In this document: one piece after another, positions 12,649-35,805 of the stretch | Layout of the letters: every line of letters begins with the position of its first letter | How positions within the stretch are numbered: position 1 is the stretch's first letter | NCBI GenBank assembly: GCA_038890745.1 | Contig: JAWAFD010000002.1 | Coordinates: 128,001 to 192,000 of the forward strand | Source of the DNA: Candidatus Anstonellales archaeon | Lineage (GTDB): Archaea > Micrarchaeota > Micrarchaeia > Anstonellales > J096 | Reading direction: 5' to 3' | Length of the DNA stretch: 64,000 nucleotides | The notes under the pieces: generated by a model | The model's database searches: none | What the model saw: the letters and a program-made list of their open reading frames with translations, nothing else | What the model was told of the DNA's origin: nothing | Translations under genes and position numbers: made by a program

Positions 12649-13326
12649 ATGAAAATAAAAATACTTTTCAACAAAAAAAAGCCATGGGCAAGAATGCTTG
12701 CAAAAAAAATAAAACTCTTTCTCAAAGCAAAAGGGTGCAGGTTTGGAAAGGGTGCGGATGCAACCATCCTCATAGGTGGGGATGGAACTATTTTTTATAA
12801 TAAAAAAAATATAGAGGGAAAAGTTGTTGGGATAGGGAGCGAAAAAAGCAAGGTTTGTCAGTTGAGAAAAGAGGAGTGGGAAAGGGTTTATGGTTTGTTG
12901 AAAGGAAAAATAGAAGATAGGATAACGCTCGATGTTTTTCTGAATGGAAAAAAGGTTGGTTGGGCAATAAATGATGCTGTTCTTCGCACAAGAAATTTCA
13001 GAATATTAAAAATAGATGTTTCGGTGGATGGAACAGCATTCTCATTTCATGGTGATGGTTTGATAGTTTCAACCCCAACCGGCTCGACTGCTTATGCACT
13101 TTCAGAATACGGTGCAATTCTCCAACCTGGCCTGACTGCATACGAGCTCGTTCCTCTTGCTCCTTATATGCGTTCTGTTTTTCCATTTGTTACGGATAAA
13201 AAAACAAGAATCACATTTTCAGGAACAGCAAGCCTAGTTCTTGACGGGCAAGAGGTAATAAAACTAAAATCGAACGATGTAATAGAAATAAAAATCGGGA
13301 AGAAAATTCCGTTCGCTGTTTTTTAG
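12649..13326 (+). CDS. nadK: NAD(+) kinase
   Basis: IGGDGT, AIND, GDGLIVSTPTGSTAYALS, LDGQ. Confidence 0.9.
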   Translation: MKIKILFNKKKPWARMLAKKIKLFLKAKGCRFGKGADATILIGGDGTIFYNKKNIEGKVVGIGSEKSKVCQLRKEEWERVYGLLKGKIEDRITLDVFLNGKKVGWAINDAVLRTRNFRILKIDVSVDGTAFSFHGDGLIVSTPTGSTAYALSEYGAILQPGLTAYELVPLAPYMRSVFPFVTDKKTRITFSGTASLVLDGQEVIKLKSNDVIEIKIGKKIPFAVF

Positions 13327-13502
13327 TTTCCCTTCCACCCCCTATCTTATCAGGAGCCAAGGAGGGACTTAAGCATATTCTTATTCCCCCCTCACGCTTC
13401 TACCCCCCTATCTTATACTAGCAAAAATGAGGGGGGTTACGGAGGAGCCTCAAACCTAGGGGGGACACTTCCCCCCTGGGTTCGGGGGGTAGTAGAGTAA
13501 GG

Positions 13503-13583
13503 TGATGCGGTGAAACAAGTGCGACCCAAAAGTTTAGGTGGGTTGGGTCGCACCGAAGCCCTCTGGGTTGTTTCACCGCATCA
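13503..13583. mobile_element. 81-bp palindromic element, copy 1
   Basis: 16-bp IR TGATGCGGTGAAACAA/TTGTTTCACCGCATCA; inner GTGCGACCCAA/TTGGGTCGCAC hairpin; near-identical copy at 35260-35340. Confidence 0.8.
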
Positions 13584-13758
13584 GGGGGTCTGAGAAAAAG
13601 ATAAAGCACCCCCTAGTCTAGGGTTAGAAAAAGAAAGGGGGTAGTAGAGTAAGGGGGTCTGAGAAAAAGATAAAGCACCCCCTAGTCTAGGGTTAGAAAA
13701 AGAAAGGGGGTAGTAGAGTAAGGGGGTCTGAGAAAAAGATAAAGCACCCCCTAGTCTA
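13584..13758. repeat. 69-bp tandem repeat, about 2.5 copies
   Basis: GGGGGTCTGAGAAAAAGATAAAGCACCCC starts at 13584, 13653 and 13722. Confidence 0.9.
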
Positions 13759-13759
13759 A

Positions 13760-13882
13760 TGGACCCAGGGGGATTTCCAAACCCTTTTCCGCTAAAGCGC
13801 TTTTAGGCAGCCCAAAAAGGGCTTTTTGAACCCCCAGCCTCCCGAGTGCAAGTCGGGTGCTCTACCGTTGAGCTATAGGCCC
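13760..13882 (-). tRNA. tRNA-Ala(TGC) with 51-nt intron at position 59/60 (intron 13774-13824)
   Basis: GGGCCTA acceptor, GCTC/GAGC D arm, CCCGA-CTTGCAC-TCGGG anticodon arm; BHB GGGGG-TTCA-AAA / TGGA-AAT-CCCCC restores the T loop TTCAAAT. Confidence 0.93.
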
Positions 13883-20543: not shown

Positions 20544-21977
20544 TTATTTTTGTTCCTTTTTTTCCAGATGCGCGTTTATTACCGTTAAAACATTGTCATC
20601 AGTTGGCTCTATTTCGTATCCGCCCATAACATCAAAATACCTGGATAACTTTTCTAAGACTTCTTTCTTTTTTGATATCTCTGTTATTTCATTTAATCTT
20701 GAATATGATTTGGGATAGTATAACTTTAGATTTTTTAGAGTTTTCCAGGCAGGACCGACCTCTGCCAACTCTATATTTTCTCTTTCATCAGCTCCAAATT
20801 TTTCAGCGTTTTGGAAGCATCTGAGTGCTTCTTCGTACTCCCCACTTTCCAATGCTTGTGTACCTTTTTCGTGATAGTATGTTGTCGCCGCTGTTATTAC
20901 TATACTTTCTTCGCATCCTTCCTCATCAGTGTTTCTACTACCTATCCTATTTATTATATCATTTATTTCATTCTCTAAGGATATTTTTTCCTTTAAGTAT
21001 TCTTTAACAGTTTTTCCAGTTCCTTTTACAGGTCTTTCCCCAACAGGGATTTTTAGATTTTCTATTCTCTTTAAATCCTTTTCAACATTTTTACCGTACT
21101 CACCTGCTCTTTTGTAATTTTTCTCTGCTTCCTCATAATTTCCTTCTTCTTCGGCTTTTTTCCCTTTCCCATAATATTCCTCTGCAAGTTTTTCACGTAT
21201 TCTTTTAATATTATCCTTTTCCTTGTTTCCATATTTTTCTGATTTCTCTAGGAATTTCAATGCCAATTCGTACTCCCCCTGACTTTCATAGTTTATCCCG
21301 GCATTATGATAGGCTCTTCCGATATATATTGCGATATCATATTCACTTACTGTATCTTTTTTAACTTCTTCTTGCATCCAGCTTAAAATTGCTTTTCTTA
21401 CTGTAGTGTCTTTTTTGGTTTCTTCTCCAAAAGGACCTTTTTCCACCCTATCAAATAAAGGGATGTATGCAGAATCAAGGAATTCACCGACAGTTGTAAT
21501 CCTAATTTTCTTTGCCCACTCCGAGACCGGAATTATTGGTCTTTCCCCAACTAATAATGGGCGCTGGGTTTTTTCCACCTGCGGCGCAGTTTGCTGGTTT
21601 TGTTTCTGTCCATCTCTTTTTTCACTTCCTTCAGGCCTTGCTTCAGGTTCTCCTGGTTTTATCTGGCATTCAGTTTGTGTCTTACCACTTCCCGTACCTC
21701 CGCTCTGTCCTAAAATAGTGACTTTAAAACCATCTGCGGCTAGGTATGGACCACCATACTTTACTGCGGCTTCATTGTATCTATACACGTAGGGATAGGT
21801 GCTCCTGCCGTCATACAATGCAGCCATTATACTATCAACAAGTGGAACAAGCGAATCAGGAAGGTTCTGCCTGAGGGTGTAAAGCCTTTCCACGCTCCCA
21901 TACCTAGTCACATACTCGCTCTCTCCTGAACTGGCACCTGCAGCTAAAATCCCCCCCAGAATCAAAAGTTTTCTCAT
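20544..21977 (-). CDS. Secreted TPR-repeat protein
   Basis: Signal peptide; three YHNAG..E..GEYE.AL..F..A..YG TPR-like units. Confidence 0.75.
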   Translation of the reverse strand: MRKLLILGGILAAGASSGESEYVTRYGSVERLYTLRQNLPDSLVPLVDSIMAALYDGRSTYPYVYRYNEAAVKYGGPYLAADGFKVTILGQSGGTGSGKTQTECQIKPGEPEARPEGSEKRDGQKQNQQTAPQVEKTQRPLLVGERPIIPVSEWAKKIRITTVGEFLDSAYIPLFDRVEKGPFGEETKKDTTVRKAILSWMQEEVKKDTVSEYDIAIYIGRAYHNAGINYESQGEYELALKFLEKSEKYGNKEKDNIKRIREKLAEEYYGKGKKAEEEGNYEEAEKNYKRAGEYGKNVEKDLKRIENLKIPVGERPVKGTGKTVKEYLKEKISLENEINDIINRIGSRNTDEEGCEESIVITAATTYYHEKGTQALESGEYEEALRCFQNAEKFGADERENIELAEVGPAWKTLKNLKLYYPKSYSRLNEITEISKKKEVLEKLSRYFDVMGGYEIEPTDDNVLTVINAHLEKKEQK

Positions 21978-27734: not shown

Positions 27735-30700
27735 CTATTTTTTCTGCCCTGTGCCAGCCCCCTCTGGGTTCACCTGCTCAGGTGGCGGAAGCTGTATTCT
27801 CTTTCCTTTTCCACCGCTTCCAGCCTCATTCGGCTCCACCTCTTCCGGCGGGGGTAGCAGTATAGATTTTGATACACTTACCTCATTCGTAGTTAGCGAC
27901 TCGCCTGCGTGGTTGTACATGTCCCATGCAGTTATCCTGTATCTGTATGTGTTTCCGCCGCTTACTGTGTCATCCTGGTACGGCCCGCTTGATACGTCAT
28001 CCAAGAATTCCCAAGGTCCTCCATTCGTGCTCCTTTCTATTCTGTAGAATTGAACAGAGCTTGCGCAATCATACGCTCCAGCGAATGTAACATTTACAAC
28101 CCCGAGTAGACTATCATAAACCGCCTCTCTGTAAGGGATCACAAACTTTGGCCCAGCCACATCAACCTTTATCTCATCATACCTTATCTCTCCTTCTCCC
28201 CCAAGGTTTCTGCACTGCGCAGCAACCCTAGCCGACCCTTCCTCGCACTGGAATGGGCCTATGTTTGAATATAATGTTAACATCCAATTGTTTACTATCC
28301 ATGGGTTTGTTGTAACTGTCTGCCAGTTGTCCCAATTTATATTATTCGGTATCTTTACATTCCCAACCCTGCACTCGCAGGCTACTCTAACCGCCTGATC
28401 CAGGTCGCTGTAAACTTTGAGGTTAGAATCCCATGTATCCGCTATTATGCTAGCCCCATCGTTTATCACCACATTTCTTAGAGGAGGCAATGGTTTTGGA
28501 ATACTGCTATCACTCGTATAATAGCTGTACCATGCCATCCCAGCATTTCCTGCTACATCAAAAGGAACTGCCCTGTACCTGTACACAACACCCGGTTGAA
28601 CATTCGTATCTACATACTTTCTTTCAAGCGCTGCGCTTCTGTTTTCGAGGAAGGTCCATGCTCCGGTTTGGTCATCCCATCTTGAAATCTCGTAAACATT
28701 CATCCCGCTTCCTCCATCCAAAGAATTTGGCCAGCTGAACTCTATATAGCACGGATACATTTTTATCATTGGGTCGATGGTTGGCATCCCACTCGGCTTC
28801 TCATCATCAAAGTTTATACTGTCGCTTACTATCTCACTCTCTCCGAATGCATTCCTGCATTGATAGTACACAGGAACGTTGTACTCATATCCGTAAACAT
28901 TCGGGTCAAGCGCGGGATAGCCGTCCATTACAAACGTTCTGCTTGCTGTATACCCCTCCCAATCAACGCTCCACACAACAATCTGTTGCTCGCTGTCCCA
29001 GTACCCATACCTGCATTCCTGGGCCGAATCAGCATGAAGCGTAAGCTGAACTGTTTCATAGTTTGTCCACACCGTATCCCCGCTATCCAAATCGCTTATG
29101 AGGATGCTTAAATTCGTTGGTGTTTGGTTTGTAACATTCACTATGTTTGTGTATGTTGAGTTTGAGTTCAAAACATTATCATACGCAACTATCAAATACT
29201 GGTATGTTGTGTTCCATGAGATGTTCATATCGGTTAAATTGCTATCTGCTGTTGTTGCTATCTGAGAGTACGCAGAGCCGTTCACAGACCTGAGCACAGC
29301 ATATCTCATCATTCCGCTGTGTGCATCGCTTCCATCCCAATCTACATCTATTCTCAATGGGTTTATGTTGAATATCGCAGCCGCATTCTCAACTGCAGGT
29401 GGAATCCCATCAAAGTTTATTGTGTCGTTTACTATTTCGCTTTCCCCAGCCATATTCCTGCACTGATAGAATACGAAAACATCTGATTGGTTCATCCCAG
29501 CCCCTACACTCTCCCCCATCAGAATAACCTGATAAGTTGTTGTGTACGGAACCCATCCAAAACCATACCCACCATACCATGTAATATCCCCTGCGTTCCA
29601 ATCCCAGTACCCATACCTGCACTCCTCTGCCAAATCAGCATGGAGAGTAAGGTTTACTGTTTGGTCGGTCCCATTCCCAGCCCAAACAACATTTCCAGTA
29701 TTCCTATCGCTTATCAATATTGTTAAGTTTTCCGGCGTAATGTTGTACGTAATATTATTAACAACAACTAAATTTGTCCATCCATCCTCTTGATTGAATG
29801 CATCATCCCAAACACTAATATAATAACGGTAAGTAGTATTTGTTGTGATGTTTAAGTCGGTCAGATTATTATCATAAGTATAGAATAGCTCAGCAGCAGA
29901 CCCATTAGTGTATTTTTGTATTCTATACATATAATAGCTGATGCCGCTTTCCAAATCATATGCATCCCATCTTACGTCTATCCAGTTGAATGTTTGGTTT
30001 GCGGTTGCGTTCTCAAGAACCGGGTCAATTCCATCATAGTTTATAGTATCGTTCACGATTGTTGAGTTTCCATAAGGATTGCTGCACTGATAGAAAACAG
30101 GAACATCTAACTGATACCTTCCTGTGCTTACATTCTCTCCCCTAAGCAATGTTTGGTCAGATGGTGTGTAATCCACCCACGCACCCCATACTATCTCTCC
30201 AGATGTCCAGTTCCACCATCCATACCTACAGTACTGCGCCAAGTCCGCATACAAAGTGAGATTTACGATTCTGCTCTGCGCATTTCCTGCCCATACCAAA
30301 TTCCCATTGTTCCTATCGCTTATTTCTATCGTTAAATTCTCGGGTGGGATTGTATTACTAACGTTCTCAACATAAACAGTGTTGCTTATTGTATAGTTTG
30401 AATTCTGCGCGAGGTCTACAGCATAAATTAGATAGGTGTAGTTTGTATCGTTCGTAAGATTCCAGTCAACATAGCCTGTTCCTGTTGTCCAGTCCACCAA
30501 ATCAAATGTTCCGCTTTCATTTACATCCCTATAAATTCCATAAAGCGCGATTCCAGACCCAACATCCCCACCATTCCAGTTTACATTTATCACAGGGTCG
30601 TTGTATACCGCGACCGCATTCTCAACCCACGGCGGAATTCCATCATAGTTTATAACATCGCTAATAATCCCGCTCGTTCCATAGGAATTTCTACATTGAT

Positions 30701-32234
30701 AATAAACAGCCACATTATAGTCATATCCTTGGCCATTGCTTATGTTTTGAGAAACAAGAGTAAATGCTCTTGTTGTTGCATAGTTCTCCCAACCGCTCCA
30801 CTGCACCTGCGCGCTTGTCCAGTTCCAATAACCATACCTGCATTGCTCAGCATTTGTCGCAGAAAGCTGGAGCATCACGTTTGTTGAATTTGTCCATTGG
30901 TCATCATTGTTTATTCTAATAAAGTTCACATTGGGCGGATTTCCTCCTCCTCCACCGCCCCCTCCGCCTCCTCCTCCGCCTCCTCCTCCACCCCCTCCAC
31001 CACCTCCGCCACCCTGGGTGGCGTTTCTATACTCTATGGAGTCAGAGGCGGTTCCTATACTTTCAGAGTTTTTATCAATACATTCATAATAAACTGTTTT
31101 CATTCCAAACCCATCGCTCAGAGTCCATCCCCTTTCTGTTCTGTATGTTTCCCATCCAGTCCATGGAGAATTCTCATTCTTATATCTGCAAAGATGCGCG
31201 TCTGTTGCATAAAGATAAAGGGTAACATACTGGGATGTTGTGTAAGGATCATTATTGTTTATCGTTATTCTTATTATCCTCTCCTTCTCTTTCTCTTCTT
31301 CCTTTTCCTTTTCCTCTTTTCCCCCTGCTCCTGCATCATACCCAACGCTAGCCTCGTTCCCGGCAGAGTCAACACACCTAACAAGAACATACCCGGTTAT
31401 TGCATAGGATTTTCCGTTGCTTCCTATCTCCTCATTTTTGTAAACAATCTGGTCATTAGAATAAATATCGCATTTTGTTGGCGTCATATCCTCAACAAAA
31501 ACCTTTACTCCATTTGTTTCAGGCTCGAGTGTGATTGCTGGTGGGGTTCCATCATAAATAATACTATCGCTAACAACCTCGCTTTCAGATTCATTGTTCC
31601 TGCATTTTGCAAAAACAGTTTTTTCTCCATCCCCTTCTGAAAGCACCCAGTACATCATGCTGGAATATCTGTCCCATCCCCACCCTCCCTTTTCATTCCT
31701 GAATGCGCACTCACTAGCCTTTGTTGCACTTATGTACAGCACGACATTTCTATTGTTTGTGTACTCTCCATCCCCAATTTTGAAGCTCAGGATTTTTGGC
31801 GGGGATACGAAAATAACCTCAACCTTATTGCTCGGTCCGCTCTCCCTTTCTCCGATTACAGCAGTAACCCAGAATGTATAATTTCCATCCTCTTTTAGGC
31901 TATAGGTGTATGTTGTTCCTTCAACAAGAATTGGATTAACCTTCGCGCCGTTCATGTATACATTGTACCCTTCAACACCAGCAGTGGGAGAAGGCTCCCA
32001 TGAAAGAAGGATGTTCGTTCCTTCAGCAACAGCGGTTAGGTTTTTTGGCGGCTCTATCCCTACCAAGGTTGATGCAACAACAGCGCTTATCCCCCCAATA
32101 ATAAGCAAAATTGCAATCGCAGCCAAAATCAAAAGTATTCTATTGTCTTCTCCTAAATCCGGCCTAGCCGCAGGCCCTTCTCTAATAGGTGCGCTATACT
32201 CTGGCGCACTAGGAACTATATCCATAATGCTCAC
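27735..32234 (-). CDS. Large membrane-anchored fibronectin type III surface protein with poly-Gly linker
   Basis: N-terminal TM; PPKNLTA..LSW..GYNVY; repeated YRYRITAWD-type FN3 units alternating with C-R-Y...Y-Q-C-R-N units. Confidence 0.85.
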   Translation of the reverse strand: MSIMDIVPSAPEYSAPIREGPAARPDLGEDNRILLILAAIAILLIIGGISAVVASTLVGIEPPKNLTAVAEGTNILLSWEPSPTAGVEGYNVYMNGAKVNPILVEGTTYTYSLKEDGNYTFWVTAVIGERESGPSNKVEVIFVSPPKILSFKIGDGEYTNNRNVVLYISATKASECAFRNEKGGWGWDRYSSMMYWVLSEGDGEKTVFAKCRNNESESEVVSDSIIYDGTPPAITLEPETNGVKVFVEDMTPTKCDIYSNDQIVYKNEEIGSNGKSYAITGYVLVRCVDSAGNEASVGYDAGAGGKEEKEKEEEKEKERIIRITINNNDPYTTSQYVTLYLYATDAHLCRYKNENSPWTGWETYRTERGWTLSDGFGMKTVYYECIDKNSESIGTASDSIEYRNATQGGGGGGGGGGGGGGGGGGGGGGGGNPPNVNFIRINNDDQWTNSTNVMLQLSATNAEQCRYGYWNWTSAQVQWSGWENYATTRAFTLVSQNISNGQGYDYNVAVYYQCRNSYGTSGIISDVINYDGIPPWVENAVAVYNDPVINVNWNGGDVGSGIALYGIYRDVNESGTFDLVDWTTGTGYVDWNLTNDTNYTYLIYAVDLAQNSNYTISNTVYVENVSNTIPPENLTIEISDRNNGNLVWAGNAQSRIVNLTLYADLAQYCRYGWWNWTSGEIVWGAWVDYTPSDQTLLRGENVSTGRYQLDVPVFYQCSNPYGNSTIVNDTINYDGIDPVLENATANQTFNWIDVRWDAYDLESGISYYMYRIQKYTNGSAAELFYTYDNNLTDLNITTNTTYRYYISVWDDAFNQEDGWTNLVVVNNITYNITPENLTILISDRNTGNVVWAGNGTDQTVNLTLHADLAEECRYGYWDWNAGDITWYGGYGFGWVPYTTTYQVILMGESVGAGMNQSDVFVFYQCRNMAGESEIVNDTINFDGIPPAVENAAAIFNINPLRIDVDWDGSDAHSGMMRYAVLRSVNGSAYSQIATTADSNLTDMNISWNTTYQYLIVAYDNVLNSNSTYTNIVNVTNQTPTNLSILISDLDSGDTVWTNYETVQLTLHADSAQECRYGYWDSEQQIVVWSVDWEGYTASRTFVMDGYPALDPNVYGYEYNVPVYYQCRNAFGESEIVSDSINFDDEKPSGMPTIDPMIKMYPCYIEFSWPNSLDGGSGMNVYEISRWDDQTGAWTFLENRSAALERKYVDTNVQPGVVYRYRAVPFDVAGNAGMAWYSYYTSDSSIPKPLPPLRNVVINDGASIIADTWDSNLKVYSDLDQAVRVACECRVGNVKIPNNINWDNWQTVTTNPWIVNNWMLTLYSNIGPFQCEEGSARVAAQCRNLGGEGEIRYDEIKVDVAGPKFVIPYREAVYDSLLGVVNVTFAGAYDCASSVQFYRIERSTNGGPWEFLDDVSSGPYQDDTVSGGNTYRYRITAWDMYNHAGESLTTNEVSVSKSILLPPPEEVEPNEAGSGGKGKRIQLPPPEQVNPEGAGTGQKK
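30942..31013 (-). repeat. 24-codon poly-glycine tract
   Basis: GGN x24 with mixed third positions. Confidence 0.9.
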
Positions 32235-35152: not shown

Positions 35153-35407
35153 GCAGGGGTCGCCAAGCCCGGTCAAAGGCGCACGGTTGAGGGCCGTGTC
35201 TCTTAGTGGGTTCGTGGGTTCAAAAGCCCAGGGGGGCTTTAACTCTTTGTCATCCCCCCTGATGCGGTGAAACAAGTGCGACCCAAAAGTTTAGGAGGGT
35301 TGGGTCGCACCGAAGCCCTCCGGGTTGTTTCACCGCATCACGCTTCCACCCCCTATCTGTTTAGGATGTTTTGGAGGGTGGTTTGGCTGAAAATCCCACC
35401 CCCTGCA
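35153..35407 (+). tRNA. tRNA-Leu(GAG) with 169-nt intron at position 59/60 (intron 35225-35393)
   Basis: GCAGGGG/CCCCTGC acceptor, CACGG-TTGAGGG-CCGTG anticodon arm, long variable arm; canonical BHB GTGGG-TTCA-AAA-GCC / GGC-TGAA-AAT-CCCAC. Confidence 0.93.
35260..35340. mobile_element. 81-bp palindromic element, copy 2, inside the tRNA-Leu intron
   Basis: Matches 13503-13583 with 2 substitutions. Confidence 0.8.
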
Positions 35408-35760
35408 TTAGACTAGGGGGTACTATTGCTTATCGCAGACCCCCTTACTCTACTACCCCCTTTCTTTTTCTAACCTCCTTGCTCCTAATAAGATAGGGGG
35501 TGGAAGAGGCAGGGGGTTTTAGAAATGCTTAAGTACCCCCTGGTCTCCCTTACTCTACTACCCCCCGAACCCAGGGGGGAAGTGTCCCCCCTAGGTTTGA
35601 GGCTCCTCCGTAACCCCCCTCATTTTTGCTCGTATAAGATAGGGGGGTAGAAGCGTGAGGGGGGAATAAGAATATGCTTAAGTCCCCCCTTGGCTCCTGA
35701 TAAGATAGGGGGTGGAAGAGGCAGGGGGTCTAAGAAATAGTTTAAGTACCCCCTGGTCTC
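35408..35760 (+). repeat. tRNA-Leu 3' trailer of G/C-run modules, with internal direct repeat (about 35481-35547 and 35693-35760)
   Basis: Same modules as the tRNA-Ala trailer. Confidence 0.85.
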
Positions 35761-35805
35761 ATGCAAATTTAAAAATCCTTTATACCATATTTTTTTGGTG
35801 GTTTG

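Follow-up and report, generated by a model that had tools for sequence, protein, structure and literature searches.

The window analysed here, a stretch of 64,000 nucleotides, is part of contig C2 of genome G000 (likely Micrarchaeota; 990 kb, 93.8% complete), and is present in four runs, all of them hot-spring metagenomes from a single study. It carries a tRNA-Leu(GAG) gene that is interrupted in the T-loop by a 169-nt intron and followed directly by a block of repeats. The intron consists of one repeat unit of about 70-90 nt (U) and a second element (E). The same repeat family lies behind a tRNA-Ala(TGC) gene in the window. The features are:

35153-35407, plus strand: tRNA-Leu(GAG), whole locus
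35153..35224, plus strand: 5' exon (nt 1-59), 95% match to genome G002
35225..35393, plus strand: intron of 169 nt at site 59/60 (T-loop), with a strict hBHBh' motif
35225..35259, plus strand: left part of U, a G-run/C-run hairpin whose first bases form the intron-side BHB helix
35260..35340, no strand assigned: element E, a three-way palindrome of 81 bp, its terminal inverted repeats perfect over 16 bp; inverted relative to 13 other copies and missing from this intron in strain X4
35341..35393, plus strand: right part of U and the BHB 3' strand
35394..35407, plus strand: 3' exon; its last base is the discriminator A73 and CCA is not encoded
35408..35761, no strand assigned: trailer block beginning at base 73+1 and followed by a second TGCA (35762-35765); missing in the syntenic sister locus L027, arranged otherwise in X4
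35408..35478, plus strand: trailer unit 1, a sense member of the U superfamily with predicted pairing to unit 2
35480..35547, minus strand: trailer unit 2, antisense U, complementary to the intron over 16 nt but sequestered by unit 1 in the predicted fold
35565..35695, plus strand: copy, in sense, of the body found in a different T-loop intron family; identity to the Gly(CCC) intron is 91.7% over 132 nt
35637..35694, minus strand: antisense TCA-type module singled out by the preliminary description, inside the Gly(CCC)-intron-like copy 35565..35695
35696..35761, minus strand: trailer unit 5, antisense U; closer to the intron than the TCA-type module (score 49 vs 37)
13760..13882, minus strand: tRNA-Ala(TGC) with a 51-nt mini-intron at 59/60 (13774-13824)
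13325..13759, minus strand: trailer array of Ala(TGC), same repeat family, including a module at 13356-13413 and a copy of E at 13503-13583

Deleting the 169 nt after position 59 in silico restores a complete tRNA-Leu(GAG), and the joined exon form is found in intron-less Leu(GAG) orthologs. The splice motif comprises a central helix with 4 of 4 pairs, an intron-side helix of 3 pairs, the 5-bp T-stem and two 3-nt bulges; on its 3' strand the helix occupies 35388-35391 and the bulge 35392-35394. Folding with ViennaRNA gave the central helix a probability of 0.03-0.21 and the outer helices 0.5-0.7. Genes for EndA and RtcB are both present in G000. The RtcB frame is 533 aa long here and 936 aa in G002; in G001 and G002 the RtcB matches are split near profile position 45-50 within long frames (G001:C35:23181-25869; G002:C38:26765-29437), which we take to be possible inteins. 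Neither ARAGORN nor Rfam called tRNA-Leu(GAG) in the window, where the Ala tRNA was the sole Rfam match, and a promoter and terminator scan with a bacterial model returned nothing beyond chance. The T-rich tract that ends trailer unit 1, near 35460-35472, might possibly act as a terminator. Relatives of the gene downstream of tRNA-Leu(GAG) are named Micrarchaeales or Micrarchaeota, and this gene is relocated in loci L022 and L026. Elsewhere in the window, a 1499-aa open reading frame with a long poly-glycine run and repeated domains (27735-32234, minus strand) is probably a surface protein.

By hand curation of a T-arm scan we arrived at 44 tRNA loci in G000, against 20 genes called by ARAGORN. 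Introns at 59/60 interrupt 26 of the 44 and belong to three families: 15 mini-introns, 7 members of a second family and 4 of a third (family-3). The highly similar family-3 introns sit in several isotypes, namely Leu(GAG), Leu(TAG), Ser(GCT) and Arg(TCT). All 25 T-loop introns checked by script have 4 of 4 pairs in the central BHB helix; Leu(CAA) was inspected visually. tRNAs with such introns are overlooked or cut short by standard tools; for tRNA-Ala(TGC) (13760-13882, minus strand), ARAGORN and Rfam place a false 3' end inside the intron (13806/13808). In tRNA-Trp(CCA) (C4:58127-58533) the T-loop intron is 407 nt long and equals a whole trailer-like array, including a copy of Leu(GAG) trailer unit 1 and an E identical to the Leu(GAG) one.

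Repeat trailers start from base 73 or just after it in 14 of the 44 loci; some arrays are not next to a tRNA 3' end, and several of these sit where a contig ends. Introns and trailers alike are mosaics of common modules, and antisense modules occur within introns as well. We count about 25-36 units of U, and a rough pattern count over 11 trailer regions, one of them without units, gave 26 units in sense and 10 in antisense. Duplications of the tRNA 3' end, 25-45 bp long, accompany Ala(CGC), Ala(GGC), Thr(GGT) and Ser(TGA), compared with only 4 bp at Leu(GAG), and one occurs in G004 as well. Trailers closed by such a duplicated 3' end lie at C1:179340-179737, C2:313777-313905, C1 near 252301 and C3 near 77245, with further cases at L060, L062, L055, L056 and L059. 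They are often preceded by an inverted T-arm copy, and the repeat at L056 apparently stems from a different tRNA. As a pattern, an inverted T-arm copy before the T-arm word is found in 5 of 19 genomes of the family, with 0 control matches; in its surroundings, the match in G001 proves to be an ordinary tRNA, and those in G000, G002, G004 and G013 are trailers closed by a repeated 3' end. Such trailers could be intermediates, in either direction. The Thr(GGT) trailer (C1 near 252301, minus strand; compared by eye with L002) contains an antisense copy of the 5' part of the G002 Leu(GAG) intron, which abuts the duplicated T-arm.

U is older than G000. It makes up 59/60 introns of Thr(CGT) and Gly(CCC) in G001 and of Leu(CAA) in G002, and in G000 it opens the 37/38 intron of Met(CAT), so that related introns sit at different positions. 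A strict U pattern matched 2 of the 151 genomes of the order, both within the genus, and the G000 variant falls outside that strict pattern. In about ten tRNAs of G001 and G002 U begins at base 73+1. When the element-less Leu(GAG) intron was aligned end to end with trailer units of these two genomes, none of 500 shuffles did as well, for 7 of 7 units. The two states are reciprocal at orthologous loci: U is the trailer of Arg(TCT) in G002 and its intron in G000, and it is the trailer of Gly(CCC) in G002 and its intron in G001. The trailer units of G002 keep BHB-like ends and form head-to-tail tandems.

The preliminary description had read the intron as a nested composite, antisense-homologous to the trailer of its own tRNA. 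The nested structure is borne out, and an 88-nt allele without E exists in run X4. The kinship of intron and trailer also withstood a shuffle test, set beforehand, that preserved homopolymer runs: the element-less core scored 52 against the reverse complement of 35630-35700, with a shuffled mean of 17.6 and a maximum of 32 (0/1000 reaching 52). With homopolymers collapsed the result was again 0/1000, which excludes a run artefact. The module at 13350-13420 scored 47 (0/1000 run-preserving, 1/1000 collapsed). These figures hold for the whole match; the left flank alone is marginal, at 51/1000 for the own-trailer module and 261/1000 for 13350-13420.

The own trailer is not special, however. The text that had been quoted for it is in fact the Ala(TGC) copy and not the Leu copy. 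We ranked 589 windows with the element-less intron as a neutral query from which no TCA was kept, and the antisense module scored 37, tied at ranks 23-27. The top-scoring empty copy is a sense unit in the Ala(CGC) trailer (score 70), directly after a duplicated tRNA 3' end. The antisense module of the own trailer is a distant family member. We therefore rejected the own trailer as donor or empty site, since it is outranked and since the X4 allele differs: the true empty allele reads GG instead of TCA and in this resembles the Ala(CGC) copy, which reads TGG. The net gain of 78 nt claimed for the intron is correct geometry for the Ala(TGC) pair, and fails as a description of the empty allele of Leu(GAG). 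Exactly this geometry, TCA against the element, recurs when the trailer of Gly(GCC) is compared with the intron of Trp(CCA), a pair that could represent a pre-insertion site or an excision scar. Thus the structure had been described correctly, and the interpretation is partly supported.

E is non-coding and present in 14 full copies in G000, all 14 at one homologous position of U; a second insertion site is seen only in G002 (its E1). It is single in the introns of Leu(GAG) and Ser(GCT), doubled in those of Leu(TAG) and Arg(TCT), and in tandem at 3 places. Its orientation is flipped in 1 of the 14 copies, that of the Leu(GAG) intron. An X2 contig carries the flipped junction too, although X1-X3 may include the source sample and are hence not independent. 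G002 has a paralogous element with 3 copies, 1 of them flipped. The bases flanking E show a CC/CCT duplication at some sites, none at others, and TA around the G002 paralog. Longer homologs of E occur in G002, and in a comparison of three variants pairing persists in 97.7% of cells; both partners have changed in 8 pairs, and 38 of 500 shuffles reached this number. Such compensatory changes can be obtained by arm-to-arm conversion within the palindrome, without any RNA function. Among 301 genomes of the class, E matched 4: G000, G002, G058 (at a contig end) and one weak match. The G058 homolog (L084, G058:C37:1-260; another family) lies in a Met T-loop intron at the contig start, head-to-head with a Val-like 3' exon, and this contig is likely misbinned or chimeric. 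A viral donor was considered and rejected: the 5 IMG/VR matches (four scans with 3, 0, 0 and 2) lack the remainder of E and look like chance hits in coding DNA.

What can be said of the history of the site comes from its alleles. One X4 contig (4356 bp, depth 11; a single contig from one study) spans the gene without E, leaving an intron of 88 nt. It has 4 differences in the first 359 bases and skips 35259-35349, with 10 other letters instead. The GG at this empty site resembles the U copies that are free of E, which have TGG in G000 Ala(CGC) and TAG in G001 and G002. As excision would not regenerate this state, the empty state is likely ancestral. At the syntenic locus L027, whose upstream protein is 87% identical, the gene has a 38-nt mini-intron and no trailer; the Leu(GAG) gene of G002, whose context is not syntenic, contains an unrelated intron about 142 nt long, and in other genera of the family 4 of 4 Leu(GAG) genes seen are intron-less. 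The preliminary description had called the locus a snapshot of intron birth or growth. Growth is upheld by the 88-nt allele, but birth finds no support, given the other introns at this site in sister lineages, and what the sequences display is thus intron growth and replacement. The locus combines two alleles from the same population (88 and 169 nt) with paralogs measuring 247 and 253 nt, with a single site that holds three unrelated introns within the genus, and with reciprocal intron and trailer states. X4 contigs do not bridge the Arg(TCT) intron. An X2 contig that joins the 5' halves of Arg(TCT) and Leu(GAG) via E was taken as a graph artefact.

How did the modules reach so many tRNA loci? 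Judging from sequence comparison, we consider it probable (roughly 0.6) that U and E modules moved between tRNA introns and 3' trailers by DNA copying at short homology, filtered by spliceability. Copying would proceed by gene conversion or template switching at short shared sequence, and inside a gene probably only spliceable outcomes would survive. At Leu(GAG) the 88-nt form would be the ancestral one and E a later insertion that entered by conversion, one candidate donor being the copy in the Trp(CCA) intron (100% identity and the same right flank), and was flipped between its 16-bp repeats. Splicing by EndA and RtcB would be unaffected since E folds on itself within the intron, where it is predicted to be closed with a probability of 0.85. 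In this scheme the excised circle would arise as a by-product, and the antisense similarity of the intron to its own trailer would be incidental. Several kinds of event at the DNA level are evident: inverted and tandemly doubled elements, modules in antisense, copies remote from tRNAs, and rearrangements at arrays. The T-stem GTGGG is common to 4 of 4 family-3 recipients and occurs in 7 of the 26 intron genes (P=0.002, post hoc and overstated owing to Leu paralogs); the U-intron of G001 Gly(CCC), with a different T-stem, is an exception. Trailer units have extra bases ahead of the intron start. We searched the 93.8% complete genome for five enzyme families (reverse transcriptase, Y1, IS4/5-type and IS630-type transposases, tyrosine integrase) and found none; PF00589, not found in G000, is present in all 14 control genomes. 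It is these DNA-type events, the shared T-stem, the lack of circle junctions (see below) and the lack of a reverse transcriptase, transposase or integrase that favour DNA copying. Against it stand the inverted-repeat ends of E and the TA duplication at the G002 paralog, as in transposase substrates. The precision at base 73+1 (14 of 44 loci with unrelated acceptor stems and 1-4 nt shared) could moreover point to targeting by an enzyme or at the RNA level.

These last traits invite a different explanation, in which E, and possibly whole U blocks, are MITE-like and depend for their movement on an enzyme provided in trans, either a transposase or an integrase that targets tRNAs, with the 3'-end duplications as attachment-site scars. 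E is indeed short, non-coding and multicopy, its 16-bp terminal inverted repeats occur in 14 copies with pairing kept across three variants, and G002 has both the TA duplication and a different insertion site for its E1. The Leu(GAG) trailer block is framed by inverted U starts and a 4-bp repeat, tRNA 3' ends are duplicated at four loci of G000 and in G004, and Caldiarchaeum offers a precedent in the part of the report available to us (PMC3293823). Nevertheless, we regard this explanation as rather unlikely. Dispersed independent insertion sites, as expected of a MITE, are lacking in G000, where 14 of 14 full copies share one homologous position of U. Duplications beside E differ between sites (CC/CCT, none or TA), conversion between the arms alone would give the compensatory changes, and IMG/VR yielded no real viral match. 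As to a cognate enzyme, PF01609 and PF13358 were not found in G000-G002, nor PF01797 in G000, all of them incomplete genomes, and no integrase gene (PF00589) was found in G000. A TnpB-type domain gave one weak match in G000 and one strong match in G002.

Mobile RNA deserves attention too, as the preliminary description had suggested the excised circle as a mobile intermediate. Excised introns, linear or circular, would be ligated again, either into tRNA precursors or to the 3' ends of tRNAs, and after reverse transcription would return by recombination. U does sit at three RNA-processing positions (37/38, 59/60 and 73+1), sense units prevail 26 to 10, G002 trailer units combine BHB-like ends with head-to-tail tandems, and archaeal tRNA introns are described to circularise in the accessible portion of PMC3326292. 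The DNA, on the other hand, holds no trace of such a circle: with two word lengths and 1 mismatch allowed, no circle or multimer junction was found for 4 introns in G000 and in a set of further loci. Bulge bases are missing at the tandem junctions of G002, G000 gave no reverse transcriptase, and antisense modules, flips and copies away from tRNAs would require DNA events regardless, all of which makes this route quite improbable. Less credible still is a regulatory role, with pairing between intron and antisense trailer in the precursor as a control on splicing or on the supply of tRNA-Leu. With the whole trailer, about 41 intron-trailer pairs are predicted at 70 C, against at most 20 in shuffled trailers (0/25), and the T-stem probability drops to 0.01; yet shuffled trailers bring about this collapse as well, in 5 of 25 cases. 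Such pairs do not form if the transcript stops at 35550 or earlier, and the nearer antisense unit is locked by unit 1. The pairing proposed earlier is thus thermodynamically possible only for transcripts that pass about 35600, in which the splice motif is predicted to be destroyed, so that pairing would block splicing in the folding model. Furthermore, the trailer is missing in L027 and different in X4 and G002, Ser(GCT) and Arg(TCT) have no trailer, and that of Leu(TAG) has sense units only. A pairing function is unlikely for a trailer that is not conserved.

Food for further thought, though doubtful at present, is that tRNA 3' trailers could be the nursery of T-loop introns in this genus. 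RNase Z cuts after base 73. A module with ready-made BHB ends would be placed at base 73+1 of any tRNA, the placement being directed by the tRNA end, for instance if DNA synthesis were primed at the precursor that RNase Z has cut. Behind the module a duplicate of the tRNA 3' end would arise, a state that several loci show, with an inverted T-arm copy able to provide the helix strand, and loss of the first 3' end would turn the trailer into an intron. If true, this would amount to a direct and repeatable route of archaeal intron gain with intermediates in living populations.

Related systems are known from other archaea. Families of tRNA introns are shared in Thermoproteales (Fujishima et al., 2010, via PMC4090602 and bioRxiv 10.64898/2026.10.13.758758), where near-identical introns occur across isotypes and positions under the constraint of the BHB motif, and where movement at the DNA level has been proposed. 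In contrast to what the available parts of these sources describe, the intron module is here also found outside genes at base 73+1, reciprocally at orthologous loci, and the introns are nested mosaics of up to 407 nt with presence or absence, inversion and duplication at strain level, in another lineage. ARMAN-2 (Ca. Micrarchaeum acidiphilum) also has introns at 59/60 in the T-loop (PMC3239211); position and motif agree, and the EndA frame of G000 is 383 aa long compared with the 387-aa three-unit enzyme described there. In the portion of that report at hand the introns are single cases, whereas here they form repeat-built families in 26 of 44 loci. Caldiarchaeum tRNA-Thr provides a case of intron gain at the population level (PMC3293823), similar to ours in its polymorphism within a population and its duplicated tRNA fragments. 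As far as the available text goes, that case concerns one locus, with an element of 1.8 kb that carries a putative recombinase; ours involves many loci and non-coding modules for which no enzyme was found in G000. Intron circles are known from Sulfolobus (PMC3326292), and the accessible text of the Asgard preprint (10.64898/2026.10.13.758758) leaves the route of intron arrival open.

Prokaryotic repeats form another comparison, by the definitions in the available parts of PMC3184786 and PMC2817692 and the Pyrobaculum MITE-like sRNA element in PMC6009581. Our modules resemble MITEs, REPs and BIMEs in being short non-coding palindromes with terminal inverted repeats, and U shares the mixed-orientation mosaic clusters of palindromic units. 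They differ in being tied to tRNA genes, where they are tolerated as introns, in numbering tens of copies rather than hundreds, and in a target duplication that varies from site to site; neither a Y1 (RAYT, PF01797) transposase nor a DDE enzyme was found in G000. In a literature search with subscription journals mostly outside its reach, we found no description of one module as both a tRNA intron and a 3' trailer.

Two further observations concern the surroundings of other tRNA genes in the genus. In G002 the Ala(CGC) trailer is followed by an end that we presume to be of IS605 type (L048 about 1120-1201; L078), and this genome encodes a TnpB-like protein. The gene that adjoins Leu(CAG) in G001 and G002 (L036, L046) is separated from it by about 5.7 kb in G000, where repeat arrays mark each of the two breakpoints (C1:15600-15650 and 21300-21680), which suggests a repeat-mediated rearrangement.
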